The translations under genes and the position numbers were made by a program. The notes under the pieces are model-generated. The model was not told the origin of the DNA. It saw only the letters and a program-made list of their open reading frames with translations, and made no database searches. Positions 5,072 through 53,042 of a stretch of DNA of 53,097 bases are shown one piece after another. The stretch covers positions 1 to 53,097 of the forward strand of contig CAYYPG010000002.1 in the NCBI GenBank assembly GCA_964473505.1, written 5' to 3'. This stretch comes from an uncultured bacterium. GTDB taxonomy: Bacteria; Hydrothermota; Tepidihabitantia; Tepidihabitantales; CAIPLT01. Within the stretch, counting starts at the first letter, position 1, and each line of letters opens with the position of its first letter.

Positions 5072-6934
5072 ATGACGACACCAAAATCTAAGCCGATTAA
5101 AATTACTGATACCACGCTTCGTGATGCTCACCAATCATTATGGGCGACTCGAATGAAAACTGATGAGATGGTACCGGTACTCCAAAAGTTAGACCAAGTC
5201 GGCTATTGGTCATTGGAAATGTGGGGTGGAGCAACTTTTGATGTATGTATTCGCTATTTAAAAGAAGACCCCTGGGAACGACTGGCAATGATTCGAAAAG
5301 AAGTCAAAAACACAAAACTCCAGATGCTTTTACGGGGTCAAAATATTGTTGGTTATCGCAATTATCCTGACGATTTGTTAGAGGCGTTTATTGAAAAATC
5401 AGCCGAAGCCGGCATTGACATCTACCGAATTTTTGATGCCTTAAATGATGTTCGGAATCTGGAGGCCGCGATAAAGTTTGTTAAGAAATATAAGAAACAT
5501 GCGCAAGGCACATTATGTTATACAATTAGTCCAATTCATACTATTGATTACTACTTAAAATGTGCCAAAGCTCAGGTAAATTTAGGTATTGATAGTATTT
5601 GCATTAAAGATATGGCTGGGATAATTGCTCCCCGGGTTGCTTTTGAACTGGTTAAAAGATTAAAAGCCGAGATTAAACTACCGGTTCAACTTCATTCTCA
5701 TTCCTCCAGTGGAATGGTGGTTGCGAGTTATTGGAAAGCCATTGAAGCCGGGGTTGATATTATCGATACCGCTCATGGTCCCTTATCGTTTGCCACTTCA
5801 CAACCCGCAGTAGAAACAATTATTGCAATGCTCGCTGATACACCTTATGCGCCTAAATTATCATTAGACAAGATTGCCGAAATCTCCGAATATTTTGAAA
5901 CACTCCGACAGAAACAGAATATTACAATAGATAAAATCATCGATGAAATGGTACTAATTCATCAAATTCCTGGAGGAATGGCATCAAACCTTCAATCTCA
6001 ATTAAAAGAACAGAACGCGGTTGACCGATTACCAGAAGTTTTAGCTGAGGTGCCTAAAGTGAGAAAAGATTTAGGTTATCCGCCTTTAGTAACACCTACT
6101 AGTCAAATTGTTGGTGTCCAAGCGGTATTTAATGTCTTAGCCGGCGAGCGGTATAAAATTATTCCGGAGGAGATAAAGAACTATGTCCGTGGCTTATACG
6201 GTAGACCGCCCGCACCAATTAAAGATACAATCCGCAAAAAAATTCTCGGTGAAGAAAAAACAATTAGCAAACGACCCGCGGATTTATTAGAGCCGGTACT
6301 GGATAAAGTCAAAAAAGAACTGGATAAAAAATATGTTAAAAAAGAAGAAGATTATATTACTTATGCTTTGTTTCCTGAAGTTGCTCTGCGATACTTTGAG
6401 TATCGGGAAAACCCATCGCAATTTGATGAAAAGGAACAAAGTGAGGAAGAAAATATGCGGAAAGAAGATAAAGAAGGGTTAGATATATTAAAAGAATTAT
6501 TGGAACTATACAGCAAACATAATATTGCCGAACTGGAATGGGAATTTTCGGGTAATAAGGTGAAGATTCGGAAATCAGCTGGTGCGCCCGTAATCACGCA
6601 AGCGCCGATTGCCGCAGAAACTAAACCGCAAACCTATGTTGACCAAACAAGCACAACCCCTCAATCAGAAAAACCGACAAGTAGCACTAATTATGAAGAG
6701 ATAAAATCGCCTATGGTAGGAACCTTTTATAGTCGACCCCGTCCTGATGCTCCGCCTTATGTTAATAAAGGCGATATTGTTGATGTTGGTGAGACTTTAT
6801 GTGTCATTGAAGCGATGAAGTTAATGAACGAACTTGAAGCGGAGAAAAAATGCAGAATTATCGATATCTTGGCTAAAGATGGTGATGCGGTCGAATATGG
6901 ACAAGCATTGTTCTTAATCGAACCTTTCTCATAA
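5072..6934 (+). CDS. biotin-dependent carboxyltransferase (PycB/OadA 5S-type) fused to an AccB-type biotin carboxyl carrier domain
   Basis: 620-aa ORF. N-terminus ITDTTLRDAHQSL (pyruvate carboxyltransferase/HMGL-like domain). The C-terminus SPMVGTFY...GETLCVIEAMKLMNELEAE is a complete AccB-like BCCP with the biotinyl-Lys motif. Confidence 0.8.
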   Translation: MTTPKSKPIKITDTTLRDAHQSLWATRMKTDEMVPVLQKLDQVGYWSLEMWGGATFDVCIRYLKEDPWERLAMIRKEVKNTKLQMLLRGQNIVGYRNYPDDLLEAFIEKSAEAGIDIYRIFDALNDVRNLEAAIKFVKKYKKHAQGTLCYTISPIHTIDYYLKCAKAQVNLGIDSICIKDMAGIIAPRVAFELVKRLKAEIKLPVQLHSHSSSGMVVASYWKAIEAGVDIIDTAHGPLSFATSQPAVETIIAMLADTPYAPKLSLDKIAEISEYFETLRQKQNITIDKIIDEMVLIHQIPGGMASNLQSQLKEQNAVDRLPEVLAEVPKVRKDLGYPPLVTPTSQIVGVQAVFNVLAGERYKIIPEEIKNYVRGLYGRPPAPIKDTIRKKILGEEKTISKRPADLLEPVLDKVKKELDKKYVKKEEDYITYALFPEVALRYFEYRENPSQFDEKEQSEEENMRKEDKEGLDILKELLELYSKHNIAELEWEFSGNKVKIRKSAGAPVITQAPIAAETKPQTYVDQTSTTPQSEKPTSSTNYEEIKSPMVGTFYSRPRPDAPPYVNKGDIVDVGETLCVIEAMKLMNELEAEKKCRIIDILAKDGDAVEYGQALFLIEPFS

Positions 6935-7174: not shown

Positions 7175-8728
7175 ATGAAAAAACCCAAACCAGTAAAAAT
7201 CATTGATACTACTTTTCGCGATGCTCACCAGTCATTAATGGCGACTCGTTTAAGAACTGCTGATATGTTACCAATTTGCGATAAGATGGATAAGATTGGT
7301 TTTTTTGCAATGGAAGTATGGGGTGGCGCAACCTTTGATGTCTGTATTCGTTATTTGGCTGAAGACCCTTGGCAAAGACTTCGCTTGCTAAGAGAACATC
7401 TGCCAAATACAAAACTATTAATGCTTTTACGGGGTCAAAATATTGTTGGTTATCGTAACTACCCAGATGATGTCTTAGAAAAATTTATCAAACTGGCTAA
7501 AAAGAACGGTATAGATATCTTTCGGATTTTTGATGCTCTTAATGATATCAGAAATATGGAGCGAGCGATTAAGACCGCAAAAGATATAGGTGCTGAGGTG
7601 CAAGGAACAATTTCTTACACCACTAGTCCAGTACATACCATTGATAAGTTCGTTGAATTTGCCCAGCAATTAGAAGAGATAGGTTGTGACTATTGTTGTA
7701 TTAAAGATATGGCTGGACTTATTTCGCCCCAAGCGGCTTATGAATTAGTTACCGCCTTAAAGCAGAAACTAAATATTCCGGTCGATTTACACACGCATTG
7801 CACCAGTGGAATGGGACCAATTAGTTATTTTTCGGCAATTAATGCCGGGGTTGATATTATTGATACCGCAATCTCTGTGTTTGCTGGTGGTAGTTCGCAA
7901 CCGGCTTGCGAAAACATGGTCGTCAGTCTTAAAGGAACACTTCGGGATACGGGTCTGGATTTAGAAAAACTCATTGAGATTGGTTACTATTTTTTAGAGA
8001 TTAAAAAGAAATATCAAAAATTCATTAGTCCAATTGCGGAAATGACCGATACCACAGTAGCAGTGCATCAGATTCCTGGTGGTATGCTCTCTAATCTCTA
8101 TTCACAACTCAAAGAACAAAATGCCCTGGATAAATATCAAGAAGTATTAAAAGAGACTCCCAGAGTCCGAGAAGATTTGGGTTATCCGCCTTTAGTGACA
8201 CCAACCAGTCAGATTATAGGTACCCAAGCGGTAATGAATGTTCTGTCTGGAGAACGATATGCCCAGATAAGTAAAGAAGTTAAAGATTATTGTTTAGGAT
8301 ATTATGGACGACCACCAGCACCAATTAAGAAAGAATTAATGGAAAAAATTATTGGCGATGAGCAACCAATTACTTGTCGGCCAGCAGATTTACTAAAACC
8401 TGAATTGCCGCAAAGAAAAATTGAAGCCGAGCAACTTGGAATATTGAGAAAAGGTTCCGAAGAAGAAGATTTAATAACTTATGCTTTATTTCCGCAGATT
8501 GCGGTCAGTTTCTTACAAGGAAAAACCGAACCAGAAAAATTAGCATCAGAAGTTAATGTTACCACAGACAGTAGCACTGACGAAAAGAAGATAATTGCGA
8601 TTGCGGTTGCTTTACACCAACATCTTGCTGCTAATTCCCAATATGCTTCCAATATTAGTTCGTATAGTAAAAGACAAACCGTATCCGAATGGAAATCAGT
8701 CGCGCGGCGAGAAGCCTTAAGAAAATGA
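7175..8728 (+). CDS. biotin-dependent carboxyltransferase 5S-type paralog without a carrier domain
   Basis: 517-aa ORF that is colinear with residues 1-450 of the preceding gene (IIDTTFRDAHQSL, HQIPGGM, GYPPLVTPTSQI). Has no AMKM motif. TGA stop. Confidence 0.8.
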   Translation: MKKPKPVKIIDTTFRDAHQSLMATRLRTADMLPICDKMDKIGFFAMEVWGGATFDVCIRYLAEDPWQRLRLLREHLPNTKLLMLLRGQNIVGYRNYPDDVLEKFIKLAKKNGIDIFRIFDALNDIRNMERAIKTAKDIGAEVQGTISYTTSPVHTIDKFVEFAQQLEEIGCDYCCIKDMAGLISPQAAYELVTALKQKLNIPVDLHTHCTSGMGPISYFSAINAGVDIIDTAISVFAGGSSQPACENMVVSLKGTLRDTGLDLEKLIEIGYYFLEIKKKYQKFISPIAEMTDTTVAVHQIPGGMLSNLYSQLKEQNALDKYQEVLKETPRVREDLGYPPLVTPTSQIIGTQAVMNVLSGERYAQISKEVKDYCLGYYGRPPAPIKKELMEKIIGDEQPITCRPADLLKPELPQRKIEAEQLGILRKGSEEEDLITYALFPQIAVSFLQGKTEPEKLASEVNVTTDSSTDEKKIIAIAVALHQHLAANSQYASNISSYSKRQTVSEWKSVARREALRK

Positions 8729-8901
8729 CTATACGAAAATCTAACCTAAAACCCCTAAGTGAACAATTCAAAGTTCACAACCAAATTGAGACTTTTTACC
8801 GAATTAGATGAAATTACCAATATTTTTGGTTTAAGTATCTTAACATTAAATATAGTAAAAGATTTTGACATTTTAAATGTATTTTTTGATTGATTTTTAT
8901 T

Positions 8902-9393
8902 ATGAGAATACAGGTTGGTGATAAATCTTTTGACATTGAGATAAGCGAGACGGTTGGAAAATTTAAAGCCCTTGTTGATGGTGAACCGAACGAGGTGCAA
9001 CCGAAATTTGATTCAGGAGGACAAATAGTCGGTCTGATTATTGATGGTAAAGAATATGGTGTGCGATTAACTAAAGAGAAGAATATTTATAAAGTCAGCA
9101 TTTTCAAAACACCATTAACTGCTTCAATCATTCAAACTTCAATAAAAGACGAAAAGGCTCCTAGCCTGCAAAAATCAATTTTAGTTTCCGCACCGATGTC
9201 AGGGTTGGTTATAAAATTGGAAGTAAGACCTAAAGATGTAATTGAGGCTGGTGCTGCACTTTTAATCTTAGAGGCAATGAAGATGCAAAATGTAATTAAA
9301 AGTCCACTTAAAGCCCAAGTTTCTACTGTCTATGTAAAAGTCGGTCAGAGAGTAGAAAAAGATGAAAAATTACTTACCTTAGAGCCGATTTAA
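8902..9393 (+). CDS. stand-alone biotinyl carrier protein (1.3S-type)
   Basis: C-terminal SAPMSGLVIKLEV...LLILEAMKMQNVIKSP biotin-attachment motif. I prefer the ATG at 8902 to the TTG at 8890 used in the track. Confidence 0.7.
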   Translation: MRIQVGDKSFDIEISETVGKFKALVDGEPNEVQPKFDSGGQIVGLIIDGKEYGVRLTKEKNIYKVSIFKTPLTASIIQTSIKDEKAPSLQKSILVSAPMSGLVIKLEVRPKDVIEAGAALLILEAMKMQNVIKSPLKAQVSTVYVKVGQRVEKDEKLLTLEPI

Positions 9394-10020
9394 TAATCTT
9401 CTTTTTATAAAAATCTTCAATAAAAGATAAAATTTATACATAAGAATCCACTTATTAGAATCTTTGTTAAAAGTGAGAAATTAATACCCAAGAAATAACT
9501 TTTGATAGAAACTATAACATGATGGGATACTTAAAGATATTGGGACACTTATCATAAGAAAAAATTCAACTGATAGTATTAGGTTTGTATCAGTAATCAC
9601 AGATACAAAACAATCTGTTTAGATAAAATACAACCCAAAAGAAAAACTTATCTTTCTCTCCTGAAAGAGATGTTTTGCGAGACTGTCAAATTCTTATATT
9701 TTTGCGGCTCATTCTTTTATTTTTTCTCAAGTCAATTACGATTAAGAATAAAACGGATTTATTTTTTCAGTCAGGTTTTAACTATGCAGCATTGGGGAAG
9801 ATAATCTGTGGTGAACGCGACCACAGCAGATTAAACCAACTGACTTTTTACACAAAAATGAGATATTTTTCTAATCCACACCGCTGGAAAGTTTGGACAC
9901 ATTGTCCAATGGATTGTTATGAACTTGTCTTTGCAGATACTAATGCCTATTTTTATCCATCAGATATCACAAAAGGCGATTTTCCAAAGATCTTATGATG
10001 TTAGAGATATTGATAGAAAA

Positions 10021-10088
10021 AGGAGGCAGTGTCTAATATTTTGTGTAAATTAAGGGTCGATATGAAGAAAAGATGTACTCTCTCCTGA
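10021..10088 (-). repeat. B-family repeat copy
   Basis: The reverse complement aligns with 361-428 and 48381-48448. The core GTGTCTAATATTTTGTGTAAATT is at 10029-10051. Confidence 0.6.
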
Positions 10089-10140
10089 GTTTAAACATAT
10101 TGATATATTAGAATAAAGAGCAAACCCTAAATAAGAAAAA

Positions 10141-10410
10141 ACAAATTACACAAAAATCTTGACACTTTCACTTAATTTCCATTCTTACGCCAAATTCTTT
10201 TGGAATAGAGCGCACTTGTTCTTTATCTTTTAAATACTACTTTTCACCATCTTTTAAGCAAAAATAAACATAAAAACATTAGTTATAACTAATGTTTTAG
10301 ACAAGGCAGATTTTTAGATAAGTTGTTGTTTTTTATAGAGATCTTGCATTTTGACCTAAAAAGAGGGTACAGTCCCCTCCACAGTCCTCTGGATTGCTTG
10401 AAAAATAGTC
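10141..10410 (+). repeat. C-family element, copy 1 (~260 nt)
   Basis: About 75-80% identical by eye to the reverse complement of 51941-52195. Contains a perfect 26-bp palindrome AAAACATTAGTTATAACTAATGTTTT (10273-10298) and the stem AGAGGG..CCCTCT. Confidence 0.65.
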
Positions 10411-10729
10411 AGAAAAGTCGTTTTGAGAAGTAAGGTCAGAAAAATATTGGCGTTACGGGAAGTGTTGGTTTGGGTAAAGATATAATTGTCAATTTATGGG
10501 CAATTGGCAAAATCAGGATGCGTGGAGTCGGAAAAATCATTCAGGAATTAATTGTCTATGCGGATGTTGCAATCATTCTTCTTATTATTATACGATGCGT
10601 TGCCAATATATTGTATCTCAATTCGCCGGCTACTTTATCTAACATTATCAGAACAACATATCGGATTTTATCATTAATCCCTGGCATCTGCTTTTTAAGA
10701 TACTTAAAAGGCGTCTAATAGTCGGGTCC

Positions 10730-10760
10730 AAAATGTTTTTGTGGATTTGTTATATTAATC
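10730..10760 (-). repeat. D-motif copy (reverse orientation)
   Basis: AAAATGTTTTTGTGGATTTGTTATATTAATC resembles the reverse complement of the D motif (CAATGTTTGTGGAAATTTGTTATAGTTAGG). Confidence 0.4.
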
Positions 10761-10921
10761 GGAACTGGTTTATCCTTAACTTTATTTATATTGATAAAGG
10801 GTATATTTTGCATATTTCCCCCAATTTCTTAAAATTAACTTTTGCTAATAAAAAAACCGGTTTCCCACAACCATTATAATTGAAACTAAATAGTATGTGT
10901 TGGACCGATTGCAACCTTTTC

Positions 10922-10950
10922 TTGACAGAACATATCATCGGATTTATACT
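10922..10950 (+). promoter_or_regulatory. consensus sigma-70 promoter for tRNA-Leu (and possibly tig)
   Basis: TTGACA (10922-10927), exactly 17 nt of spacer, then TATACT (10945-10950). Lies about 75 nt upstream of the tRNA. Confidence 0.6.
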
Positions 10951-11029
10951 TAAGGGATCGCAAATATGTACGGGTTAAATGCGCTACGCACTCGTGCCGA
11001 GTCGTTATTTAACTGACGAGATTTATTTT

Positions 11030-11114
11030 GCGAGGATGGCGGAACCTGGCAGACGCACTGGATTTAGGATCCAGTGCCCTTACGGGCGTGGGGGTTCAAC
11101 TCCCCCTCCTCGCA
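11030..11114 (+). tRNA. tRNA-Leu (anticodon UAG)
   Basis: Manual cloverleaf: acceptor GCGAGGA/TCCTCGC, anticodon stem CTGGA/TCCAG with loop TTTAGGA, long variable arm GCCC-TTAC-GGGC (class II), T arm GGGGG-TTCAACT-CCCCC, discriminator A. No CCA is encoded. Confidence 0.9.
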
Positions 11115-11143
11115 TTGTAACTAAAAATTAAAAGACAAAAAAT

Positions 11144-12355
11144 ATGGAAATTAAAATTAAATCGCCAAAATCCTGGCAAAGAGAAATTGAAGTCACCGTA
11201 GAACCTGAACGGGTTAAAAAGAAGATTGAAGATGTTACCGCTTCTTATGCCGGTAAAGTGCAAATTGCTGGCTTTAGAAAAGGTAAAGTGCCCAGACCCA
11301 TCCTTCAAAAAAGATATGGTTCCACTTTTGAAGCCATAGCCATTGATGAGTTGTTTGATGAGATATATAAAGAAATTATACAAGACCATAACTTAAAACC
11401 CATCACGCAAGCTAAAATTAGTGATTATCTACTTTCCGATGATAAAACTCTAAAGTTTGACCTCTCGTTTGAAGTTATCCCGGATTTTGAACTGAAGAAC
11501 TATTTCGGATTAAAATTAAAAAAATTAGAACCAGTTGGTTTTGATGCGGAATTTGAACGTCGGCTCAAAGATCTTCAAGCACGATGTGCCACATTCATTT
11601 CCGCAAATCGACCTGCAGAGACCGGCGATTTTATCTTAGTTGACTATGAAATCTATGAAAACGATACACCGGTTGGTAAAAAACAATTAGGCAATATGCT
11701 CCATTTGGGAAGTGAAAACAATCATCCTAATATTAACCAAGCCCTAATCGGAGTAAATGCCGGTGAAGAAAAAAGTGTCACAATAACCTTTTCTCAAGAC
11801 TATCCGGAGACAGTTTTGCGGGGAAAGACCTTGAATTATAAATTCTATATTCGCGACGTAAAAATTCGACAACTACCCGAACTTGACGATAAACTGGCAG
11901 TAAGTTTAGGATTTAAAGATTTAGATGATATGCGGCGGCAAATTAATGAAGAAATCTTACAAGAACGCGCTCTACTTATCGAAGATGACTTGAAAAATCA
12001 AATTTACCGTCATTTGGTTGCTGATTATGATTTTGAACCACCTCAATCCTTAGTCAATTATGCCTATCAAGATATTCTTAATCGATATCGAATGCCGGAT
12101 AGTGAAGAGAACCGAAGCCAACTACTGCCTTTAGCAATCGACAAAGCCAAGTTTGATCTTATCTTAATCCGGATTGCGGAAAAAGAGAACATCACAGTTA
12201 CACCGGAAGAGATTGAAAACGAAATCAAAAAGTATGCAATACTGGGAATTGAAGAAGACAAACTCCAGAATCTACGGACAAATCCCAAATTTATTTCCCA
12301 AATTCAACAAGATAAAGTTTTACAATATCTTTTAGAAAAAGCCGAAATCTCATAA
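11144..12355 (+). CDS. tig: trigger factor
   Basis: 403-aa ORF. The N-terminus has AGFRKGKVPRPIL (ribosome-binding GFRxGxxP motif). It sits in the classic tig-clpP-clpX gene order. Confidence 0.9.
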   Translation: MEIKIKSPKSWQREIEVTVEPERVKKKIEDVTASYAGKVQIAGFRKGKVPRPILQKRYGSTFEAIAIDELFDEIYKEIIQDHNLKPITQAKISDYLLSDDKTLKFDLSFEVIPDFELKNYFGLKLKKLEPVGFDAEFERRLKDLQARCATFISANRPAETGDFILVDYEIYENDTPVGKKQLGNMLHLGSENNHPNINQALIGVNAGEEKSVTITFSQDYPETVLRGKTLNYKFYIRDVKIRQLPELDDKLAVSLGFKDLDDMRRQINEEILQERALLIEDDLKNQIYRHLVADYDFEPPQSLVNYAYQDILNRYRMPDSEENRSQLLPLAIDKAKFDLILIRIAEKENITVTPEEIENEIKKYAILGIEEDKLQNLRTNPKFISQIQQDKVLQYLLEKAEIS

Positions 12356-12426
12356 AAATGACGCATTGTCAATTTCTCCCGGTCTTTTAACCATGAGACA
12401 TTAAACGTTTTATTAATGGAGGTATT

Positions 12427-13011
12427 ATGTATATTCCGATTGTAATTGAACAAACCAGTCGGGGCGAACGGGCTTACGATATCTATTCCCGTCTCTTAAA
12501 AGAACGAATTATCTTTGTCGGAATGCCCATTGATGACAATGTTGCCAATCTCGTAATTGCCCAATTACTGTTTTTAGAAGCCGAAGACCCAGATAAAGAT
12601 ATCTTTCTTTATATCAATTCGCCTGGAGGAATCGTTTCGTCCGGGTTAGCCATCTATGACACAATTCAATATATTCGTCCCAAAGTTTCGACAATTTGTA
12701 TGGGCATGGCGGCAAGTCTTGCCGCATTACTTTTAGCCGCTGGTGAAAAAAACAAACGATTCGCTTTACCCCATTCGCGAATTATGATTCATCAGCCTGA
12801 GGTATCCGGACTGTCCGGACAAGCCACAGATATTGAAATTCACGCCAAGGAAATTCTGCGCTTAAAACAGCAATTAGCCGAACTTTTAGCCAAACACACC
12901 AACCAGCCAATTGAAAAGATTCTTGCCGATTCTGACCGTAATTATTTTATGTCCGCCGAAGAAGCCAAAGAATATGGTATCATTGATGAAGTAATTGAAA
13001 AAAGAAAATGA
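12427..13011 (+). CDS. clpP: ATP-dependent Clp protease proteolytic subunit
   Basis: 194-aa ORF with [26 protein letters not shown], the catalytic context [11 protein letters not shown], and HQP. Confidence 0.95.
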
Positions 13012-13113
13012 GCAAAAATGTTCCTAATCACTTCTCAAACCAAATTTCAATAGAACTTATTAAAACGATGAGCGGAATATTTATAATTGACCATAACGCC
13101 ATGCAGTACTTTT
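12986..13113 (+). repeat. L arm, copy 1 (last 8 clpP codons plus stop, then 102 nt)
   Basis: 128/128 nt identical to the reverse complement of 41993-42119, checked base by base. Confidence 0.9.
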
Positions 13114-13235
13114 TTTGGCAAGGTACAATTGCCAATGTTCCACCTCAAGGTGGCCGAAAGCATCCTGAACAAGAATATATCCAAATCAATACTAAAAATA
13201 TTCTCTTTATCTGCGACCGTCATAGCAGTGAGTAA
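13008..13235 (+). CDS. chimeric 75-codon ORF (L-arm N-terminus plus a 32-codon ClpX segment); expression unproven
   Basis: The ATG overlaps the clpP stop (ATGA). Residues 39-70 are identical to Clp[33 protein letters not shown] see no independent sign that it is functional. Confidence 0.25.
13120..13215 (+). repeat. ectopic copy of an internal clpX segment
   Basis: 94/96 nt identical to 14322-14417. Both mismatches are synonymous T/C third positions. Confidence 0.95.
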
Positions 13236-13274
13236 GAAAATGAGCAGAAATGCTTTTTTGTCAACTAGTCTGGT

Positions 13275-13385
13275 AGAGAACTCTGACAAAGTCAATATTG
13301 GTTCAAAAGACATGAAATGCAGAAGTATAATTATTGGTTTTTTCTTGTAGGGTTCGGTGTCTTGTGAGCATTTTTCAGAGATTTC
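13275..13385 (+). repeat. A-family element, copy A1 (points toward clpX)
   Basis: 108/111 identical to the reverse complement of 41690-41799. Contains the inverted repeat TGACAAAGTCA (13284-13294) and TTCAAA (13302-13307)-18 nt-TATAAT (13326-13331). Confidence 0.85.
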
Positions 13386-13711
13386 TGGTAAAACAACCAT
13401 TTTACTACTTAGAAATCTTGACACAGCATCGGATTATTGACGAAGTACCGAAAAAGCGAAGAAATTGGGAAAACATATGAAATGAAATTATGAATTGGAA
13501 AAAGACACCTGTAACGAACACTCGTAACCTTGATACATTAATACGGCTTCGTTAGTAGAAGCCGAAAACCTTGTGGGCTGTAATGAACACTCATAAACTT
13601 GTAGATATACATAAATACCGTTGCCCGATTAGTGTTAATTCGTGGCGACGAAAATTTTATCGTTGAATTTATGAAGATTAACGATAGTCCTTGTGAGGTA
13701 TAACCTAATTT

Positions 13712-14932
13712 ATGAAAACTCGTCGTTGTTCATTTTGTAATCGACCGGAAAATCGGGTTCGAATGCTCTTCGGCGGGCATAATGCTAATATCTGTGATGA
13801 CTGTGTCCGTTTAACTTGGAATCTTATGCAGGATAAGGAGAAACATCGTTTTTTTGCTACACTTCCAACATTACCCACCCCACCTGAAATTAAATCCTTT
13901 TTAGATGAATATGTTATTGGACAAGAACAGGCAAAAAAAGTCTTATCTGTTGCGGTTTACAATCATTATAAACGGGTCTTCTCGCGAAAACCCAATATTG
14001 ATATTGACAAAAGCAATATTCTCCTCATTGGTCCTACAGGTGTTGGAAAAACCCTTTTGGCCGAAACCTTAGCCAAGTTTCTCAATGTGCCATTTTCCAT
14101 TTCTGATGCTACGCCCCTTACTGAAGCCGGCTATGTTGGCGAGGATGTGGAAAATATCCTGTTACGACTCATTCAAGCCGCTAATTGGGATTTAGACTTA
14201 GCCTCAATTGGTATTGTCTATTTAGACGAGATTGATAAGATTGGTCGTAAAAGCGACTCACCATCTATCACGCGCGATGTCTCGGGTGAAGGTGTCCAAC
14301 AAGCCCTGTTAAAAATCCTTGAAGGTACAATTGCCAATGTTCCACCTCAAGGTGGCCGAAAGCACCCTGAACAAGAATATATCCAAATCAACACTAAAAA
14401 TATTCTCTTTATCTGCGGTGGTACCTTTTTTGGCTTAGAAAAGATAATTGAAAATCGACTAAAAAAGTCTGGCATCGGTTTTCAAGCAGATATTGTTTCT
14501 AATAATCGAGATAAAGACGAACTTTTGAAATTTGTCGAACCTGATGATCTGATAAAATTCGGACTGATTCCGGAATTAGTGGGCAGATTACCTGTTGTGG
14601 TTTCACTACATAGTCTTTCTCGTGAATCCTTGCTTGATATTTTGACCAAACCACGCAATGCTTTAATTAAACAATATCAGTACTATTTTGATTTAGAAAA
14701 TGTGAAATTAACTTTTGAGCCTACGGCCTTGGAAAAAATTGCGGATTTAGCTTTAGCCTGCAATACCGGTGCCCGCGGTCTTCGAGCAATCTTAGAAAAT
14801 GTGCTCTTAGATATAATGTTTGATTTGCCCTCTAAAAAGAATCTCAGTGAATGTATTATCACGGCGGAAACCATAATGGGTGGACCACCTAAGTTTATTG
14901 TAAAGAAACTGAAACGTAAACGTGAAGCATAA
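13712..14932 (+). CDS. clpX: ATP-dependent Clp protease ATP-binding subunit ClpX
   Basis: 406-aa ORF with an N-terminal zinc-binding CSFC...CDDC, Walker A GPTGVGKT, pore loop GYVGED, Walker B YLDEIDK, the GGRKH loop and the IGF loop. Confidence 0.95.
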
Positions 14933-21234: not shown

Positions 21235-21254
21235 ACAACCTAATTGGTTTAATT

Positions 21255-21760
21255 TAAATCCGTTTATCATAAAGGAATAAAAACCTATATATTTCGTGTG
21301 AAAATCTTTTCAACTAAAAATAGAAAAGGATTAAGTCACCCCAAAATAAGATTGAATAATATCCCACCTATCATTAACAAGTGACCAAGTAAATCTCAAC
21401 TTATTAGAATAAATTCTCTTATCCTTTAAAAAATAAAAGAAACAAACCAATCCAATAAGTTGATTTAAAAATTCATCTATCATTAAGAAGTAAACAGGTA
21501 AACTCTAATAAAATCATCTTAACTTAAAAAAGCAAAAGAATGAAAATAACCCATACATTTTGAGTAAAAATCCGTTTGGCTTAAAAAAGTAAGGGAACAA
21601 AATACCCCAATAAGTTGGTATAAGAATCTATTTATCATTAAGAAATAAATAAATAATAAAAATCCTCTAAACTTAAAAAAAAGAATAAAATGATCCCGTA
21701 CATTTTGAGTAAAATTCGATTATCTTACAAAGAAAAAGAATACATAATTTTTTAACGAAG
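21255..21760. repeat. very AT-rich degenerate tandem repeat block (about 90-155 nt units)
   Basis: Recurring sub-motifs: ATC..TTATCATTAAGAA at about 21258, 21361, 21471, 21626 and 21713; CCAATAAGTTG at about 21451 and 21607; ACATTTTGAGTAAAA at about 21555 and 21699. Confidence 0.55.
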
Positions 21761-21898
21761 CACCCGATTTGGTTTGGTAAGCAATCCAATTATTCATCTC
21801 ATCTGTTGTCTTATTGAACATCTATCAGTTAAATCAAGAGACTACTCAGAAATCAGTTTAAAATACTGTCGATTTGATAGTTGGACAGGCAATCCCTT

Positions 21899-21942
21899 GG
21901 GTACCCCCCTGGATATCCCCTGGGTATACCCTCTGGTATACC
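21899..21942. repeat. four phased GC-rich palindromes, exact 12-bp period
   Basis: GGGTACCC (21899-21906), GGATATCC (21911-21918), GGGTATACCC (21922-21931) and GGTATACC (21935-21942). Their centres are exactly 12 bp apart. Confidence 0.8.
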
Positions 21943-21977
21943 TGGGAGATTGTCCATTAGATAAAGGAGATTGCCAG

Positions 21978-22060
21978 GGAGATATGATCAAATGTTGTGG
22001 AAAATTGAATATATCAATAAAAACACTTGATGAGACCTTATAAAAGGAAAAAGATATCTC
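21978..22060 (-). repeat. D/E repeat unit (reverse D motif plus 55-nt E segment)
   Basis: Colinear with 22245-22328 (GAGATATGATCAAATGTTGTGGAAAATTGAAT..CTTGATGAGACCTTATAAAAGGAAAAAGATAT). Confidence 0.6.
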
Positions 22061-22084
22061 TAATATATCTAAATTAAAATATAA

Positions 22085-22106
22085 CAACTGTTGTGAAAAA
22101 TTGAAG
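22085..22106 (-). repeat. partial reverse D motif
   Basis: CAACTGTTGTGAAAAATTGAAG resembles TCAAATGTTGTGGAAAATTGAAT. Confidence 0.4.
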
Positions 22107-22244
22107 ACATGTCGTTTTATGGGTAAAACAAAAGCGCCGACACCAGTTAAAATATTAATGTGTCGGCAGAAGGACAAATTAACATGAAAGATTATGTCAA
22201 AAATCAAATTAAGTCAAGAACTATCTTGAACCGCCAGCATAAAC

Positions 22245-22366
22245 AGAGATATAATCAAATGTTAGGGAAAACTGAATGTATCGATAAAAATCCCTTGATG
22301 AGACTTTACAAAAGGAAAAAGATATACCTAAACTATAATAAATTTCCACTAACATTGACAATATCT
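22245..22366. mobile_element. MITE-like unit bounded by roughly 25-nt imperfect terminal inverted repeats (D motif)
   Basis: The left end AGAGATATAATCAAATGTTAGGGAAAA pairs with the reverse complement of the right end AGATATTGTCAATGTTAGTGGAAATT (about 21/25 with one indel). It has no ORF and I see no clear target-site duplication. Confidence 0.4.
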
Positions 22367-22434
22367 TTTATTTCTCAGCCCAATGGTTATTAAATTTGGA
22401 GAGTTAGCTTATGATGGAACCTTATATAAAAAGA

Positions 22435-22473
22435 AGATATACTTAACGATCCATAAACATTGACAATGTCTCT
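22435..22473 (+). repeat. D-motif copy (internally shortened)
   Basis: AGATATACTTAACGATCCATAAACATTGACAATGTCTCT. Confidence 0.5.
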
Positions 22474-22492
22474 CTTAGGAATAAGACCTTAC

Positions 22493-22537
22493 AGATATGC
22501 CTAACTAATAATAAAGTTTCACAAACATAAACGATAG
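22493..22537 (+). repeat. D-motif copy (diverged)
   Basis: AGATATGCCTAACTAATAATAAAGTTTCACAAACATAAACGATAG. Confidence 0.5.
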
Positions 22538-22586
22538 TTTTGAACCACCAATAGAAAATTTACCAGGAACAGGAAAATACTGTTTT

Positions 22587-26645: not shown

Positions 26646-26916
26646 ACATTACCTACTGCAAAAATAATAAGTTATACCTTGGATATTCTAATCTACCGTC
26701 TTCGTCCGATTCTTTTATCTCCATTCCACATATTGAATCTTTATAAAGCATATTAAAATCAGTTGAAAAATATATCTGTTTTTAAGATGGCATATTAAGC
26801 TAAGTTTACATCTACATCTCTGCACCCGAATCCAAGTTCAGAATAGTATAAGTTCTCTTCTTTAGATTTTATTTTATTTTTAAGTAAGTGTTTGGTTAAA
26901 TCTGAACTCTATGTGC

Positions 26917-26931
26917 TATATATATATATAT
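26917..26931. repeat. (TA)7 microsatellite
   Basis: TATATATATATATAT lies immediately 3' of the dfx stop, in the 295-nt dfx-copA spacer. Confidence 0.8.
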
Positions 26932-26940
26932 TGGCAATAG

Positions 26941-27315
26941 TTATGCCTTCCACAGTCCGTGAATATTACAATATTCGCGGGCGGTAATATTTTCGGCTTG
27001 GATATTAAACTCGGCTTCTGGTGTATCACCCGGTTTTAAAAATTTTCGATAACTTCTGCCGTCAGCAATAATTTGAATCCACTCAATATAGTGTTTATCT
27101 TCCATAGGGTGTGGTATTGAGCCAATTTTAACTTTTATGCCCGTCGCAGTCTTTTCAATCACCGGCACATGTTTTTCCAGACCGACATCAGCCGTTTTTT
27201 CTTGTAAAAGTTCCATCGGTTCGCCGCAACAGACTAAAGTGCCGCCACCCATATGCAGAACTTCAACAATATTACCACAAATTTTACATTTATAGATTTG
27301 AGATATTGTAGTCAT
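26941..27315 (-). CDS. dfx: desulfoferrodoxin (2Fe superoxide reductase)
   Basis: 124-aa ORF with an N-terminal desulforedoxin-like CKICGN...CCGEPM and a C-terminal SOR domain EKHVPVIE...HPM...HYIEWI. Confidence 0.85.
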
Positions 27316-27356
27316 TTTATTCTCCTTGGTCTAACTTTATCTTTCCATTTTTTTTA

Positions 27357-27371
27357 TTAATTATTAATTAA
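27357..27371. promoter_or_regulatory. perfect 7-1-7 inverted repeat (Fur/PerR-family-type operator candidate) upstream of dfx
   Basis: TTAATTA-T-TAATTAA lies 42-56 nt upstream of the dfx ATG. It has the same geometry as the PerR box TTATAATnATTATAA. Confidence 0.4.
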
Positions 27372-27416
27372 TATTATATAGTTTCTGTATTCTAAAAACA
27401 AGACTTGCTTTTCTTA

Positions 27417-27836
27417 TTATATCTCTTCCAGTAATCCAGTAAAAGTATCAAGATGTTCTTCTTCGTCGGCTAAAATACCTTCAAATATTTTCTTCGTTGT
27501 AATATCACCTTCTTTATCAGCGAAAGCAATTATTTCCTTGTATAATTTGACGGCACTTTCCTCATCTTTTCTATCTTGAGTAATTATTTCTTTTAAGTTT
27601 TTACCCACAAAGATCGGTTCCGGCTGGGTTGTGGGAATTCCGCCTAAATAATTAAGTCGTTCCGCAATAGCTTCTGCATGTTTCATTTCAGTAATTGCGA
27701 TTGCTTTTAATTCATCTTTAACTGCAAATGCTTTGACACCTTTCCATTGCACATGTTGCCACATATATTGGATAGCGACTTGCAATTCTCGGGCAATTGC
27801 TTTATTCAACATATCCATTAATTGTGTGTTAACCAT
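27417..27836 (-). CDS. bacterioferritin-like ferritin-fold protein
   Basis: 139-aa ORF. The di-iron ligand pattern E..Q/EMKHAE/EEEH is spaced as in bacterioferritin. Confidence 0.7.
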   Translation of the reverse strand: MVNTQLMDMLNKAIARELQVAIQYMWQHVQWKGVKAFAVKDELKAIAITEMKHAEAIAERLNYLGGIPTTQPEPIFVGKNLKEIITQDRKDEESAVKLYKEIIAFADKEGDITTKKIFEGILADEEEHLDTFTGLLEEI

Positions 27837-27878
27837 ATTAATTCCTTTCTTTTCTATAACATCTTTAATGTTTTTGAC

Positions 27879-28550: not shown

Positions 28551-28630
28551 GATTTCTCCTTTCTTTTCTTTTTCATAGATTGGTTATTTGTTTAGCATAT
28601 TTATACTCACATACATATTTTGCTTCTCTA

Positions 28631-28883
28631 ATAATTACTGAAACAATAATTTTGTAATTCGATTTTTTTGTTAATAGTTTTTATATGTTTGGCTTTTTTA
28701 TTTTTACAGAACATATGCTGTTTTTCTAGATTCCGATACATAATTATTAGACTAATAAATTTGTAATTCGGTTCTTTTTGTTAATAGTTTTTATATGTTT
28801 ATTTTTACAGAACATATGCTGTTTTTCCAAATCTCGCCACCATAATTATTATGCTATTAAATTTGTAAAATTCAGTTTGTTTG
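28631..28883. repeat. 2.4 tandem copies of a roughly 105-nt unit upstream of prx
   Basis: Units are 28631-28739, 28740-28841 and the partial 28842-28883. Each starts ATAATTAYTRNAMYAATAAWTTTGTAA and the full units contain TATATGTTT..ACAGAACATATGCTG. Confidence 0.8.
28744..28758. promoter_or_regulatory. perfect 7-1-7 inverted repeat (Fur/PerR-type operator candidate) in repeat unit 2
   Basis: TTATTAG-A-CTAATAA. The equivalent positions in units 1 and 3 are degenerate (4/7 and 5/7 arm matches). Confidence 0.35.
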
Positions 28884-28932
28884 TCCCAAGACGCAACCGA
28901 GAAATTTACCTAATTACCTTATCTAATTTTTA

Positions 28933-38980: not shown

Positions 38981-39319
38981 GCGTAAATTTTATAAAAATT
39001 AACCAAGATGTCAATAGAAAAAATAGAGGTTTTTCAAAGAACATTCTATATGTAGTGTTTTATAATAATACATACAATATATAGTGGTAAATATTTAATA
39101 TTAAGGGATTAAAAAACAGAATCTTTTCAGTGTGTATAGAATAAATAAATGGTTGTGCAGTTTGAAAATCCTCTTTTGTTTAAAAGTTTTTGTCTTTTTT
39201 CATTTGGAAGCAAACGAATTTATATATGAGGGCAAATAATGGTTATTGTTCATGAAGGAGCGTCAAAATTTTTATATATATTGATTCTTTCTTTCATAGA
39301 TGTACTCTTAATGGGTAAA

Positions 39320-39390
39320 CAAGGGAAAAGACGCATCGTTTTCTTTAACATATCGATACTGAACTTAAATAAAATATTTAGACACCACCT
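39320..39390 (+). repeat. B-family copy
   Basis: CAAGGGAAAAGACGCATCGTTTTCTTTAACATATCGATACTGAACTTAAATAAAATATTTAGACACCACC. A partial inverted B 5' piece (AGATGTACTCTTA) lies at 39296-39308. Confidence 0.55.
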
Positions 39391-39724
39391 GTTCATGATA
39401 TAGACATTAATAGTTAGTAAAAATCTTTATATGTGATTGAACCGTATTCAGGTTCGACTTATGGTTGTTGCCTTATTTATTTATTTATTTTTAGTTCAAT
39501 CTTTCTTTATATGGATCAAACTGACATCATGTGACATCTGACTATATAAGGAGACTTTATCAGGATGGTAATAGACTAGGGGCTAGCCCCGACCTAGACC
39601 AATACTAGCATATTGAAAAGCATAGGCTACCTTATATACCGCAGCCTGGGTCGCTTACCCGTTAGCCATCAATGTCTAAATGTAAATAAAATACCTTAAA
39701 GTTTTCTAACCAATTTTTAAGAAA

Positions 39725-39828
39725 ACGAAAAAATGCTCAAAAGACGCGAAAGAAAAATTAAAAAATTCGCTTCTGCACTCCGAGTCACTTGAGGTATATA
39801 TTGGTTTTCTCAGAGTTCGCTTAAAGAG
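39725..39828 (-). repeat. A-family copy A6 (diverged)
   Basis: ACGAAAAAATGCTCAAAAGAC...GCTTCTGCA...CTCAGAGTTCGCT aligns with the A consensus at its ends. Confidence 0.4.
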
Positions 39829-40131
39829 AGTCAATAAAAGCCGGTATTTACACAAAACATCATGTGGTGCAAACTAGAATGAAGCAAAGCAAAATTAACT
39901 TGTTTCAATATCCAATAAAACCACTGGTTGATAGACTTTCAAAACAAGTTCAGAGTAACAAAGGTGATTTTTACTAAACTCTTGTTTTAATCTTTTTGTA
40001 AGTATTAGTAAGAGAAATTTTAGTATTCGATGCCATATAATTTTTAATCGCTGCAATCAATGGAAAGTTATGTGCCTTTGATGTTAGACAGTCTAAATTG
40101 AAAAATATTATTGTTGAAGACTTGTTAGATT

Positions 40132-41689: not shown

Positions 41690-41799
41690 GAAATCTCTGA
41701 AAAATGCTCATGAGACACCGACCCTACAAGAAAAAACCAATAATTATACTTCTGCATTTCATGTCTTTTGAACCAATATTGACTTTGTCAGAGTTCTCT
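41690..41799 (-). repeat. A-family element, copy A2 (points toward purH)
   Basis: 108/111 identical to A1. The minus-strand TATAAT is at 41743-41748, about 115 nt upstream of the purH ATG. Confidence 0.85.
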
Positions 41800-41950
41800 T
41801 TTGTATCTCTGTTTTTTCATCGACTCCGCAGAGAGTAATTAATTCCAGTTTCGGTCCGGTTGTCCATAATTGTGCTAAAATCGTTTTTGCCACATCTTCC
41901 TCGATTGAATTATTTATCTTCAAATGTAAGGTCAACTCGGTTTTTCCCTT

Positions 41951-42097
41951 TTATCCATTATTTTTAGTCCGATTCTTTAAATATAAAATCATAAAGTACT
42001 GCATGGCGTTATGGTCAATTATAAATATTCCGCTCATCGTTTTAATAAGTTCTATTGAAATTTGGTTTGAGAAGTGATTAGGAACATTTTTGCTCAT
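41951..42097 (-). CDS. 48-codon L-arm ORF, copy 2; expression unproven
   Basis: [35 protein letters not shown] is identical to the first 35 residues of ORF 13008-13235 and is followed by a different tail. Too short for the ORF track. Confidence 0.2.
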   Translation of the reverse strand: MSKNVPNHFSNQISIELIKTMSGIFIIDHNAMQYFMILYLKNRTKNNG

Positions 42098-42119
42098 TTT
42101 CTTTTTTCAATTACTTCAT
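41993..42119 (-). repeat. L arm, copy 2 (includes a copy of the clpP 3' tail)
   Basis: Exact reverse complement of 12986-13113, apart from a 1-nt uncertainty at the boundary. Confidence 0.9.
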
Positions 42120-42231: not shown

Positions 42232-43428
42232 TCAGGCTCCGAATTTTTTCAGTTTTAGACTATGGGCTAATAATAATGGCATCACTTTGGTCTGGTGAAA
42301 TATTCCCAGACTGCCTTGAGCACAGTTTTTTTCAGAAAACTTGTCGTAATTGTCTTTGCGTGCATATGACGAATAAAGTAAAAACGGGTTCGGATGCCAA
42401 GAATGACCTTTTAAGATTGCAGGCGTTGAGTGGTCAGAAGTTATGGCGAGCACATCAAACTTCAGTTGAAGAATCTCAGGTAATAAAGAATCAAATTTTT
42501 CAATCAATTTGATTTTGCCCTCAAAATCGCCATCTTCGCCTTTCATATCAACCTCTTTAAAATGGAGATAAAAGAAATCAAAATCATGTGAATTTTTCGT
42601 CAAGGTCTCAATTTCCGATTCCCAGGTCTCTGCGGTGGCTAATACTTTCATTCCGACTAAACTGGCAATACCCTTATACATTGGATAAGTAGCAATTGCG
42701 GCTGGTGTTATTGGATAAAGACGACTCATCGGCTCAAGATTAGGATTGTGTGCGAAACCCCGTAATAATATGTAGTTGGCTTTGGGTTCATCTTTTAGTA
42801 ATTCTGTTACTCGGCTGATGAAGAGATTAACGATTCTTTCGCTGTGCTTCGCTTGGGAGGAAAGCGCAGCAATTTTAAATGGTGCTTTCCCTTCTTTCTG
42901 CGGATCCGATTCGCTCAAGTCTGAACTTAAATCTTTTCCCCGAAACACAATTACAAAACGATGTTCTTTACCTGGCCGAATAATAATTTCGACATCTTCA
43001 ATTTTTTTAATTGTTTCGGATAATTTTGTACAGATTCTCTGATTTTCTTCAGTAGAAATTCTGCCGGCGCGTCGGTCAATTATAATACCATTTTCTATCG
43101 TGGCAAAATTTGCTCGGACACACAAATCATCAGGTCCGACTTCCAAACCCACGCCTAGTGCTTCTAAAATGCCTCGACCAATTTGATGTTTAATCGGGTC
43201 ATAACCAAACAAAGCCAGATGCGCGGGCCCACTACCAGGAGTAATGCCATAATCAACCGGAATAGTTAAACCCAAACTACTATTTTTAGCCAATTTGTCC
43301 AAGTTTGGTGTCCGGGCTGTTTCCAGTTCAGTCTTACCATTTTGAGGAGGCGTTCCACCTAAACCATCAATAACAATTAATAAAATCTTTTTTTGATTTA
43401 CGGTAAAAAGTGGTTTTAGTAATTCCAT
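42232..43428 (-). CDS. apgM: cofactor-independent phosphoglycerate mutase, archaeal-type
   Basis: 398-aa ORF with LLIVIDGLGG, FFYLHFKEVD..GEDGD and ITSDHSTP, as in metalloenzyme-superfamily ApgM. TGA stop. Confidence 0.8.
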   Translation of the reverse strand: MELLKPLFTVNQKKILLIVIDGLGGTPPQNGKTELETARTPNLDKLAKNSSLGLTIPVDYGITPGSGPAHLALFGYDPIKHQIGRGILEALGVGLEVGPDDLCVRANFATIENGIIIDRRAGRISTEENQRICTKLSETIKKIEDVEIIIRPGKEHRFVIVFRGKDLSSDLSESDPQKEGKAPFKIAALSSQAKHSERIVNLFISRVTELLKDEPKANYILLRGFAHNPNLEPMSRLYPITPAAIATYPMYKGIASLVGMKVLATAETWESEIETLTKNSHDFDFFYLHFKEVDMKGEDGDFEGKIKLIEKFDSLLPEILQLKFDVLAITSDHSTPAILKGHSWHPNPFLLYSSYARKDNYDKFSEKNCAQGSLGIFHQTKVMPLLLAHSLKLKKFGA

Positions 43429-43525
43429 ATTAGTTGTCTAAACTTTTAAGAAAATGCAAGGCAACAATAGTTTTAGTAATTCCATATTAGTTGTCTAAAC
43501 TTTTAAGAAAATGCAAGGCAACAAT
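43413..43525 (-). repeat. exact tandem duplication (56 nt x2, period 57) spanning the apgM start codon
   Basis: 43413-43468 is identical to 43470-43525. Each copy contains CAT (ATG on the minus strand) plus the first five codons. Confidence 0.9.
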
Positions 43526-43635
43526 GAAGTTTACTATCGAACCATTGAACGCAAATAAAAGATCATGAAATACAATCCCGATTTCTTTTTCTCGTCTTCT
43601 AATTCTGCGTTTCGGAAACAATTTATTCCCTTCAG

Positions 43636-50986: not shown

Positions 50987-50993
50987 ACAGGAA

Positions 50994-51100
50994 GAAATCT
51001 GAAAAATGTTCAAAAGCCACCAAGACCCATAAGAAAAAAACAACAATTATGTTTCTGCATTTCATACCTTTTGAACCAATATTGACTTTATCAGGGTTAT
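50994..51100 (-). repeat. A-family copy A3 (points toward ptb)
   Basis: About 80% identical to A2 by eye. Its -10 equivalent is CATAAT (51046-51051, minus strand). Confidence 0.7.
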
Positions 51101-51340
51101 TTACGAAAAATTCTCAGGATGGTAAGTAAGCCAATCCGCCACTGATTAATTTTATTCTGTTTTCAGTTCTCCATTCAACACTGGCAGACTTAAATAAGTA
51201 AACAGATATTTATATGATTGATTTTGGGAATTTTTAACTTTTTAGCACTTTGCTGATAATTTTTTATTTATCTGGTAATGATCACATCGCTCATAATAAG
51301 TAAAATGATTTTTTCAAGAACGCGCCCGATTTTGACACAA

Positions 51341-51410: not shown

Positions 51411-51463
51411 TAAATCGATTCTAATATCTCTGCCCGAACTTGATTGTCAAGGTAACTCAATAA

Positions 51464-51570
51464 AAACTCTGAAAAATGCACAAAAGACACCGCGACCATA
51501 AGAAAAAACCAATAAATATGCTTCTGCATTTCATGCTGTTTGAACCAATATTGACTTTGTCAGAGTTCTT
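51464..51570 (-). repeat. A-family copy A4
   Basis: About 85% identical to A2 by eye (CTCTGAAAAATGCACAAAAGACACCG...GAACCAATATTGACTTTGTCAGAGTTCTT). Confidence 0.7.
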
Positions 51571-51587
51571 TCAAAAATTTCTTCTTA

Positions 51588-52950: not shown

Positions 52951-52967
52951 ATTAAGAAAGAAAACGC

Positions 52968-53042
52968 CGAAAAATACTCAAGGGACGTCGAGTCCCCAAA
53001 AAACCAACAATTGTGCTTTCTGCATTTCATACCTTTTGAAAC
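52968..53042 (-). repeat. A-family copy A5 (diverged/partial)
   Basis: ..AAAAAACCAACAATTGTGCTTTCTGCATTTCATACCTTTTGAAAC matches the central part of A. Confidence 0.45.

Follow-up and report, generated by a model that had tools for sequence, protein, structure and literature searches.

A near-identical 96-nt copy of a clpX segment in the enlarged clpP-clpX spacer of an uncultured WOR-3 bacterium, probably the scar of a templated insertion

The window analyzed here, an entire 53,097-nucleotide (nt) contig of metagenome origin that is assigned by its sequence to an uncultured bacterium of a candidate division WOR-3 lineage, contains between the clpP and clpX genes a 96-nt stretch that is a near-identical copy of an internal segment of clpX. 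An initial annotation of this DNA had located the copy within a 75-codon open reading frame (ORF) that starts at the end of clpP, and had read it either as a recent repair scar or as a ClpX-mimic micro-protein co-translated with ClpP. The results presented below indicate that the 96-nt copy is probably a young and neutral by-product of a rearrangement, i.e. of a recent and complex templated insertion, rather than a gene.

A self-comparison of the whole contig showed that positions 13120-13215 match clpX positions 14322-14417 at 94 of 96 nt (blastn E=5e-41), and that the two segments form a direct repeat with a start-to-start distance of 1202 nt. At the two positions that differ the copy has T where clpX has C (13163/14365, CAT/CAC; 13190/14392, AAT/AAC), both being third codon positions and both changes being synonymous. 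Because the two copies share codon phase 1 when counted from the respective ORF starts, the patch lies in frame within ORF 13008-13235 (75 aa), whose ATG overlaps the clpP stop codon as ATGA. When aligned with solved ClpX structures, the 32 copied residues correspond to ClpX residues ~215-248, a stretch that includes R228-K229-H230. The Arg228-Lys229-His230 (RKH) motif, part of a beta-ribbon atop the axial channel, has a role in substrate recognition (PMC7112951). The sequence features among these had been correctly described in the initial annotation, as had a 19-nt direct repeat (18 of 19 nt identical) that brackets a 232-bp block containing the copy. That annotation had missed, however, a second clpX-derived piece of 14 nt, the duplication of a segment that we term module A, a five-copy repeat family that we term R, and the lineage specificity of the whole spacer.

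The closest genome matches to the ClpX protein of the window were found in three WOR-3 metagenome-assembled genomes, L001, L002 and L003 (91%, 82% and 78% amino acid identity, respectively), which show an identical tig-clpP-clpX-tolB-like gene order. The clpP-clpX spacer measures 700 nt (13012-13711) in the window, and 65 nt, ~20 nt and ~0 nt in L001, L002 and L003, respectively. In a set of 111 loci with clpP directly upstream of clpX, the spacer had a median length of 84 nt (interquartile range, 40-166 nt; maximum, 364 nt), and it reached at least 600 nt in none of them; likewise, a second copy of the 32-residue segment was present in 0 of 144 loci. When the window was compared by blastn with the loci of the three relatives, clpP and clpX aligned, and from the spacer only the 96-mer did so, to the clpX genes of the relatives. 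Module A, R, the 18-nt filler that follows the copy and the remaining spacer had no match in 147 fetched loci or in viral contigs, and A and R had none in a metagenome scan either. As judged from these comparisons, the entire 700-nt spacer is lineage-specific and represents a derived state. The patch itself is 98% identical to the clpX gene of the window and 90%, 84% and 85% identical to those of L001, L002 and L003, respectively, and it is therefore a recent copy made inside this lineage.

The copy is one piece of a mosaic, whose modules are listed in Table 1. The last 26 nt of clpP, which lie inside module A, are native clpP sequence, the encoded C-terminus (...DEVIEKRK) being conserved in the relatives. 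The segment GTACTTTTTTTGGC (13106-13119) lies directly 5' of the 96-mer, and its clpX counterpart (14421-14434) lies just 3' of the source segment; none of 1500 shuffles, and 4 of 1500 random places, gave a match as good as this 14-mer beside both copies. The clpX-derived pieces are permuted, 14421/8-14434 coming first and 14322-14417 second, and the TGGC/AAGG join between them corresponds to a 113-nt backward jump (14434 to 14322). Because GTACTTT is common to the end of module A, as delimited at its second locus, and to the start of the 14-mer, the A/clpX junction is a microhomology junction. The 96-mer is followed by the 18-nt filler, a 19-nt copy of the clpP end, ~20 nt and R. Three of the patches come from templates within ~1.4 kb, namely the 96-mer (from clpX, 1.2 kb away), the permuted 14-mer (from clpX) and the 19-mer (from the clpP end).

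Two other candidates within the spacer were set aside. The stretch 13433-13476 (...RIIDEVPKKRR) might be a further copy of the clpP end, the third, in a decayed state, but its score was borderline against shuffles and random windows (p ~0.04-0.06) and it is not relied on. A minus-strand ORF of 125 aa (13047-13424) was rejected as a gene, since it crosses separate repeat modules, its frame is broken by a 1-nt indel between R copies, and it has no Pfam hit.

Clustered patches in non-colinear order are known to arise when a polymerase switches between nearby templates (PMC7954356; PMC5120786), and bacteria have microhomology-dependent, template-jumping repair enzymes, such as the group II intron-like reverse transcriptase (RT) G2L4 (bioRxiv 10.1101/2022.03.14.484287). 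A sequence of steps that would account for the mosaic, in which the mechanism (replicative or repair), the order of the events and their neutrality are inferred from the DNA sequence, is as follows. The clpP-clpX spacer would have grown to 700 nt by the piling up of pasted-in segments, in one event or in a few close events in which a break or a stalled fork just 3' of the clpP stop codon was filled with patches from nearby templates. The nascent strand would have left module A at ...GTACTTT, paired by microhomology with clpX at ...GTACCTTTTTTGGC (14421-14434), jumped 113 nt backward and copied clpX 14322-14417; after the addition of the 18-nt filler, to which no origin could be assigned, it would have re-entered the original template 19 nt behind the point of exit, thus generating the 19-nt direct repeat. 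The in-phase landing of the patch behind an ATG that overlaps the clpP stop codon would have produced the chimeric 75-codon ORF. In a later event of this kind, module A, a 127-nt part of the newly formed junction region that holds the 26 nt of clpP, would have been copied into the apgM-purH spacer. Of the two proposals of the initial annotation, that of a repair scar or template switch is thus retained in its essence, being supported by the absence of the block from relatives, the origin of the patches within ~1.4 kb, the microhomology junction and the 19-nt repeat, which fits polymerase re-entry. A single 232-bp insertion is nevertheless too simple, as the block lies inside a mosaic of ~700 nt and its left part has itself been copied elsewhere.

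Several observations weigh against this interpretation. Clear microhomology (GTAC(C)TTT) is present only at the A/clpX junction; the TGGC/AAGG join has none, and the 13215/13216 junction abuts sequence to which no origin could be assigned, so that the other junctions are either blunt or border such sequence. No template was found for the remainder of A (13021-13105), the 18-nt filler or 13387-13711, and ~130 nt of the block are without a match on the contig and in the 147 loci. The pathway that such insertions evoke, fork stalling and template switching/microhomology-mediated break-induced replication (FoSTeS/MMBIR), has been documented mainly in eukaryotes and in E. coli model systems, whereas the host here is an uncultured WOR-3 bacterium. 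The ORF may be translated through the ATGA overlap with clpP. Finally, no independent contig crosses the joins from A to the patch or from the patch through the second copy of the direct repeat to R, and it is in this contig alone that clpP is seen joined to the copy of A that bears the patch.

The last point bears on whether the arrangement could be an assembly artefact or mis-pairing, i.e. a wrong walk through a repeat-tangled graph or a chimera of strains. The contig comes from a metagenome, and two of its repeats, A (exact over 127 nt) and R (exact over 79 nt), form ambiguous nodes in a short-read assembly. Moreover, the ORF starts inside A, so that the opposite pairing of the A copies would imply that clpP is joined to ...CAGTACTTTATGATTTTAT and would put the patch-bearing ORF in the apgM-purH spacer, uncoupled from clpP; a link between clpP and ...CAGTACTTTATGATTTT would place the patch at that other locus. 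Two other short-read assemblies of the same population (k ~41 and k=31) were compared with the window. Contig FMJZ01038923.1 corresponds to 10640-13025 at 100% identity and ends 40 nt into module A, and from the apgM side FMJZ01040578.1 (42080-43452) ends 40 nt and the Logan contig SRR7473445_285 (42090-43442) ends 30 nt into A. Independent contigs (L064, L066 and L067) thus end exactly k-1 nt into module A from both contexts, the signature left by de Bruijn assemblers where two contexts meet at one repeat. The Logan contig SRR7473445_19449 (L065; 14322-21223) begins at the exact first base of the 96-mer in clpX, and therefore the reads hold a second left-hand context for the 96-mer. Exact-protein look-ups retrieved no identical record for full-length ClpX, the 75-aa ORF, the 48-aa ORF at the second A locus or PurH, while ClpP and the TolB-like neighbour are recorded, as would be expected if those assemblies have clpX in pieces. 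The breaks of the independent assemblies coincide with the ends of the repeats, so that both the repeats and their limits are real. The two differences from clpX, in addition, do not fit a simple re-traversal of one graph path, and the mostly nearby origin of the templated patches favours the arrangement as assembled. Taken together, these data make an artefact unlikely.

The second proposal of the initial annotation was a ClpX mimic co-translated with ClpP. Under this reading the 75-aa ORF, translated through its coupling to clpP, would carry an RKH segment that disturbs the ClpX hexamer or vies with it for tags, adaptors or substrates. The ATGA overlap, the in-frame presence of 32 ClpX residues including GGRKH, the role of the RKH loops in substrate recognition (PMC7112951) and the lack of a predicted terminator after clpP, which makes transcription of the ORF by read-through likely, all speak for it. 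However, the block, whose presence in relatives the initial annotation had wished to see compared, is absent from L001-L003, an outcome that it had itself counted against the proposal. No homologue of the ORF beyond its ClpX part was found in 241 million metagenome records searched with whole-ORF peptides (including KNILFICD), all 80 retained loci matching residues 38-69 only, and a search of 5.8 billion proteins returned only the ORF itself and ClpX fragments, residues 1-37 being unmatched. Two small ClpX-like proteins, P0003 and P0008, were considered as analogous fragment ORFs and discarded, as they are frameshift debris of ordinary clpX genes on contigs of 0.9x and 2.9x coverage. Codons 1-35, which make up the N-terminal half of the ORF, derive from module A, a duplicated and non-coding-looking segment, and the 48-aa ORF at the apgM-purH locus matches the 75-aa ORF over the module-A part and then diverges. 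Because the same ATG gives a different product at the second copy of A, the 75-codon ORF is best read as an accidental fusion of A-encoded codons and the clpX patch. The chance of an in-frame landing is one in three. The copied piece is the RKH beta-ribbon plus the next core strand of the AAA+ sheet and no autonomous domain. Pfam gave no hit in the ORF, and a single-sequence AlphaFold2 model, which is weakly informative, was of low confidence (mean pLDDT 58, with five models at 40-58; pTM 0.41). The absence of a Shine-Dalgarno sequence was dropped as evidence against translation, since about half of the genes on the contig are without one.

The synonymous-only pattern of change, which the initial annotation had pointed out, was also examined. 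Synonymous changes account for 22% of all single-base changes and for 33% of the transitions in the segment, so that the probability of both differences being synonymous under neutrality is 0.05-0.11. As L001 and L003 have the T of the copy at the two variable sites, both changes probably occurred, by parsimony, in clpX; this polarisation is soft, as L002 has C at both sites and third positions evolve fast. With n=2 changes, such a probability, and a clpX gene that tolerates only synonymous changes, the synonymous-only argument carries no weight. In the light of all these data a ClpX-mimic micro-protein is very unlikely and is not supported.

A more far-reaching version would have termination-reinitiation at the clpP stop codon yield a newborn microProtein that inserts into or caps ClpX subunits, or titrates ssrA-like tags or adaptors, thereby tuning ClpXP activity in step with ClpP synthesis; a less exotic variant would invoke an active mechanism that pastes templated patches of 50-130 nt into upstream spacers. 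We regard these ideas as highly improbable. If true, the chimeric ORF would represent a de novo regulator at the moment of its origin, and a single patch-pasting process would have left its footprints in the clpX patch, in the duplication of module A and in the tandem duplications at gene starts described below.

Both loci of module A share the same order, i.e. A, an unrelated middle (160 vs. 193 nt) and R, and the same orientation to the downstream gene, and one of the middles holds a piece of that gene. This arrangement could be viewed as a composite mobile or cassette-like element that inserts upstream of genes and captures host-gene fragments, in a Pack-MITE (miniature inverted-repeat transposable element) or guide-bearing manner. 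Nevertheless, A includes 26 nt of native clpP coding sequence and is hence a copy of the locus and not an element terminus, R is found three more times without A, and the middle of the second locus (41800-41992) has no source on the contig or in any fetched locus by tblastx and blastn. There are no terminal inverted repeats at the ends of the block, and a survey of the ORFs of 150 aa or more on this 53-kb contig revealed no reverse transcriptase, transposase or integrase. The lack of A and R in viral contigs, in the metagenome scan and in the 147 loci also argues against an element, which is therefore a rather improbable explanation. A transposable element flanked by a target-site duplication, such as a MITE, was rejected as well, because inverted repeats are missing at the ends and only sub-modules, not the whole unit, recur. 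The segment present in the second copy of A begins in clpP, 16 nt before the direct repeat, and stops inside the block; target-site duplications are usually shorter than the 19-nt repeat seen here.

The pair of near-identical repeats of ~100 nt, one non-coding and one genic, in the same orientation and ~1 kb apart, is also reminiscent of the template and variable repeats of a diversity-generating retroelement, here acting on the RKH loop of ClpX. No RT domain was detected in the contig ORFs surveyed above, however, the differences are T (copy) vs. C (gene) instead of being adenine-specific, and both are synonymous. Furthermore, the target would lie in the conserved AAA+ core and not in a C-terminal variable domain. 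The retroelement reading is effectively refuted on its defining features, and we consider it extremely improbable.

The repeat R occurs five times on the contig, each copy being oriented to the next downstream gene; three copies lie 67-325 nt upstream of clpX, purH and a PTA_PTB-family gene, and two lie far from any gene start. The hexamer TTCAAA is invariant among the copies and is accompanied 18 nt downstream by a TATAAT-like hexamer. This core pattern gave four matches vs. zero expected, while the overall number of promoter-like sites in the region equalled the shuffle expectation. R has no Rfam match and no copies in the clpX loci of the relatives. A structured RNA was considered and is not claimed, the consensus fold being weak and the covariation term unfavourable. 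R may be a promoter that gives clpX its own expression, independent of clpP, an activity inferred here from its match to a promoter consensus.

Other repeats are frequent on the contig. In three unrelated minus-strand genes, apgM, pheS and hycI, tandem duplications that cover the upstream region together with the ATG and 5-22 initial codons were observed directly upstream of the real start, and each of them yields a short upstream ORF that begins like its gene. Independent contigs end k-1 nt into the 57-nt apgM repeat. The gene-start duplications are of differing age, which suggests either a recurrent process or the retention of duplicates. A larger repeat family of ~350-500 nt is represented by 10025-10556 vs. 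51627-52171 (inverted, ~75% identity) and also by 48318-48448, the first two being located in two long non-coding islands, and a 26-nt perfect palindrome is common to the copies (10273-10298 and 52048-52073); the family may consist of ncRNAs, of small genes or of the ends of an element. In addition, non-coding tandem repeats with a period of ~100-160 nt and 71-78% identity were found at 52641-52956, 21426-21731, 28564-28884 and 51587-51906; they include repeats between convergent genes (21235-22586) and repeats upstream of a peroxiredoxin gene.

The coding density of the contig is unusually low for a bacterium, with only ~67% of it inside ORFs of at least 150 aa. There are 17 gaps longer than 300 nt, several of them exceeding 1 kb (e.g. 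9394-11143, 21235-22586, 26646-27878, 38981-40131, 44662-45699 and 50793-53097), and dispersed or tandem repeats fill many of them, the large ORFs all being ordinary housekeeping genes. With its gene-start duplications, low coding density and many dispersed repeats, the genome is, as far as this contig represents it, prone to events of the kind proposed for the clpP-clpX spacer.

Pfam confirmed both clpP (CLP_protease) and clpX (zf-C4_ClpX, AAA_2 and ClpB_D2-small) as genuine genes. An Rfam search of the whole contig at gathering thresholds returned one tRNA-Leu and nothing else, and no family was found in the clpP-clpX spacer when 12900-13800 was searched at E values up to 10. Elsewhere on the contig, two adjacent paralogous genes for carboxylase subunits with HMGL-like plus PYC_OADA domains (5072-6934 and 7175-8728) share ~69% nt identity over 700 nt; a biotinyl domain is kept only in the first of them, and a separate small biotin-lipoyl ORF lies at 8890-9393.

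Table 1. Coordinates of the genes, spacer modules and repeats discussed in the text
Feature	Position	Strand	Description
clpP	12427..13011	+	194 aa; Pfam CLP_protease E=4.5e-86; 85% nt identity to L001 clpP; final 26 nt inside duplicated module A
Module A	12986..13112	+	127 nt, 100% identical to 42119-41993; holds clpP 3' end, ORF ATG and first 35 ORF codons
Direct repeat, copy 1	13002..13020	+	Native clpP end and stop
Chimeric 75-codon ORF	13008..13235	+	Module-A codons, in-frame clpX patch, 6-codon tail; no Pfam hit
Junction segment	13106..13119	+	13/14 to clpX 14421-14434; first 7 nt GTACTTT = last 7 nt of module A
Patch from clpX (RKH beta-ribbon and following core strand)	13120..13215	+	94/96 to 14322-14417
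Filler	13216..13233	+	18 nt; no match elsewhere on contig or in 147 loci
Direct repeat, copy 2	13234..13252	+	18/19 to copy 1; patch copied from clpP end
R, clpX side	13273..13386	+	~110 nt; TTCAAA-N18-TATAAT promoter-like core (TATAAT at 13326-13331), faces clpX
Remaining lineage-specific spacer	13387..13711	+	No match in relatives or loci; no Rfam hit
clpX	13712..14932	+	406 aa, intact; Pfam zf-C4_ClpX, AAA_2, ClpB_D2-small; source of patch (14322-14417) and junction 14-mer (14421-14434)
R	41690..41799	-	67 nt upstream of purH; 97% identical to clpX-side R
Middle of second A-to-R locus	41800..41992	-	193 nt, unrelated to first middle
Module A, second copy	41993..42119	-	In apgM-purH spacer; same ATG gives 48-aa ORF (41951-42097) with different tail
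apgM start duplication	43413-43526 (start 43428)	-	57 nt x2, 100% identity
pheS start duplication	44638-44843 (start 44661)	-	~100 nt x2, 84%; upstream ORF MDLIRVKQ...
hycI start duplication	49017-49287 (start 49109)	-	~125 nt x2, 81%; upstream ORF MKLIIVSIGNR...
R	50993..51104	-	Upstream of PTA_PTB-family gene (49899-50792)
R	51462..51582	-	Copy of R family
R, diverged partial	52960..53040	-	Copy of R family

The clpP-clpX spacer offers a clean, datable example of the growth of a bacterial intergenic region by the pasting of short copies of neighbouring sequence. Behind a highly expressed gene, such an insertion can at once give rise to a chimeric ORF that is in frame and so provide raw material for de novo genes, with no sign here that the ORF is becoming one. 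The locus also holds two cautions for genome scans, as the argument 'in frame, only synonymous' no longer convinced when outgroups were used to polarise the changes, and the argument 'coupled to clpP' was weakened by the finding of a second copy of the N-terminal module. For the host, the 96-nt direct repeat is, if anything, a liability, since recombination between its copies would delete 1202 nt, with them the N-terminal half of clpX, and leave an in-frame fusion of 240 aa that has neither the zinc finger nor the two Walker motifs. Of greater interest at the level of the genome are the low coding density, the promoter-like dispersed repeats and the repeated duplication of gene starts.

Comparison with known systems places these findings in context. 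MicroProteins, a plant concept, are small dominant-negative proteins that derive from a domain of a larger protein, and they have an autonomous interaction domain and are conserved. ORF 13008-13235 resembles them in being a small ORF that holds a piece of a multimeric protein beside the partner gene, but its fragment is no domain and it has no homologues. Diversity-generating retroelements are alike in having a repeat pair of ~100 nt with one copy in a gene, and differ from this locus, where no RT was found among the contig ORFs of at least 150 aa, the changes are not adenine-specific and the target would be a conserved core. Mobile promoters and promoter reuse have been described in prokaryotes (PMC3575422), and R is similar to them as a near-identical segment of ~110 nt that lies before non-homologous genes, faces them and has a conserved -35/-10-like core; this likeness concerns R and not the clpX patch, the activity of R is a consensus match only, and two of its copies are far from gene starts.

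Partial gene duplicates and fragment pseudogenes are, like the 96-nt patch, short, recent and non-functional-looking copies of an internal segment beside the parent gene; the patch differs in comprising only 96-110 nt, in being permuted and in lying inside a mosaic, and it is no relic of a tandem duplication of the whole gene. Bacterial end joining by microhomology with fill-in, as carried out by G2L4, could paste short patches at a break by combining microhomology with a template-jumping polymerase, and for this locus it is purely a candidate enzyme class, neither such an RT nor Ku/LigD having been found on the contig, where no search aimed at them was made. The FoSTeS/MMBIR-type insertions (PMC7954356; PMC5120786) differ from the present case in that here one junction has clear microhomology, part of the insert has no assigned template and the mechanism is read from its product alone. 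In agreement with such insertions, however, the spacer contains several short, non-colinear patches from nearby templates, microhomology at one junction and a duplication at the point of return, and it is absent from relatives. The 96-nt clpX copy thus adds a further example to a known class of events, in which a complex rearrangement leaves behind a patch made of a gene fragment.

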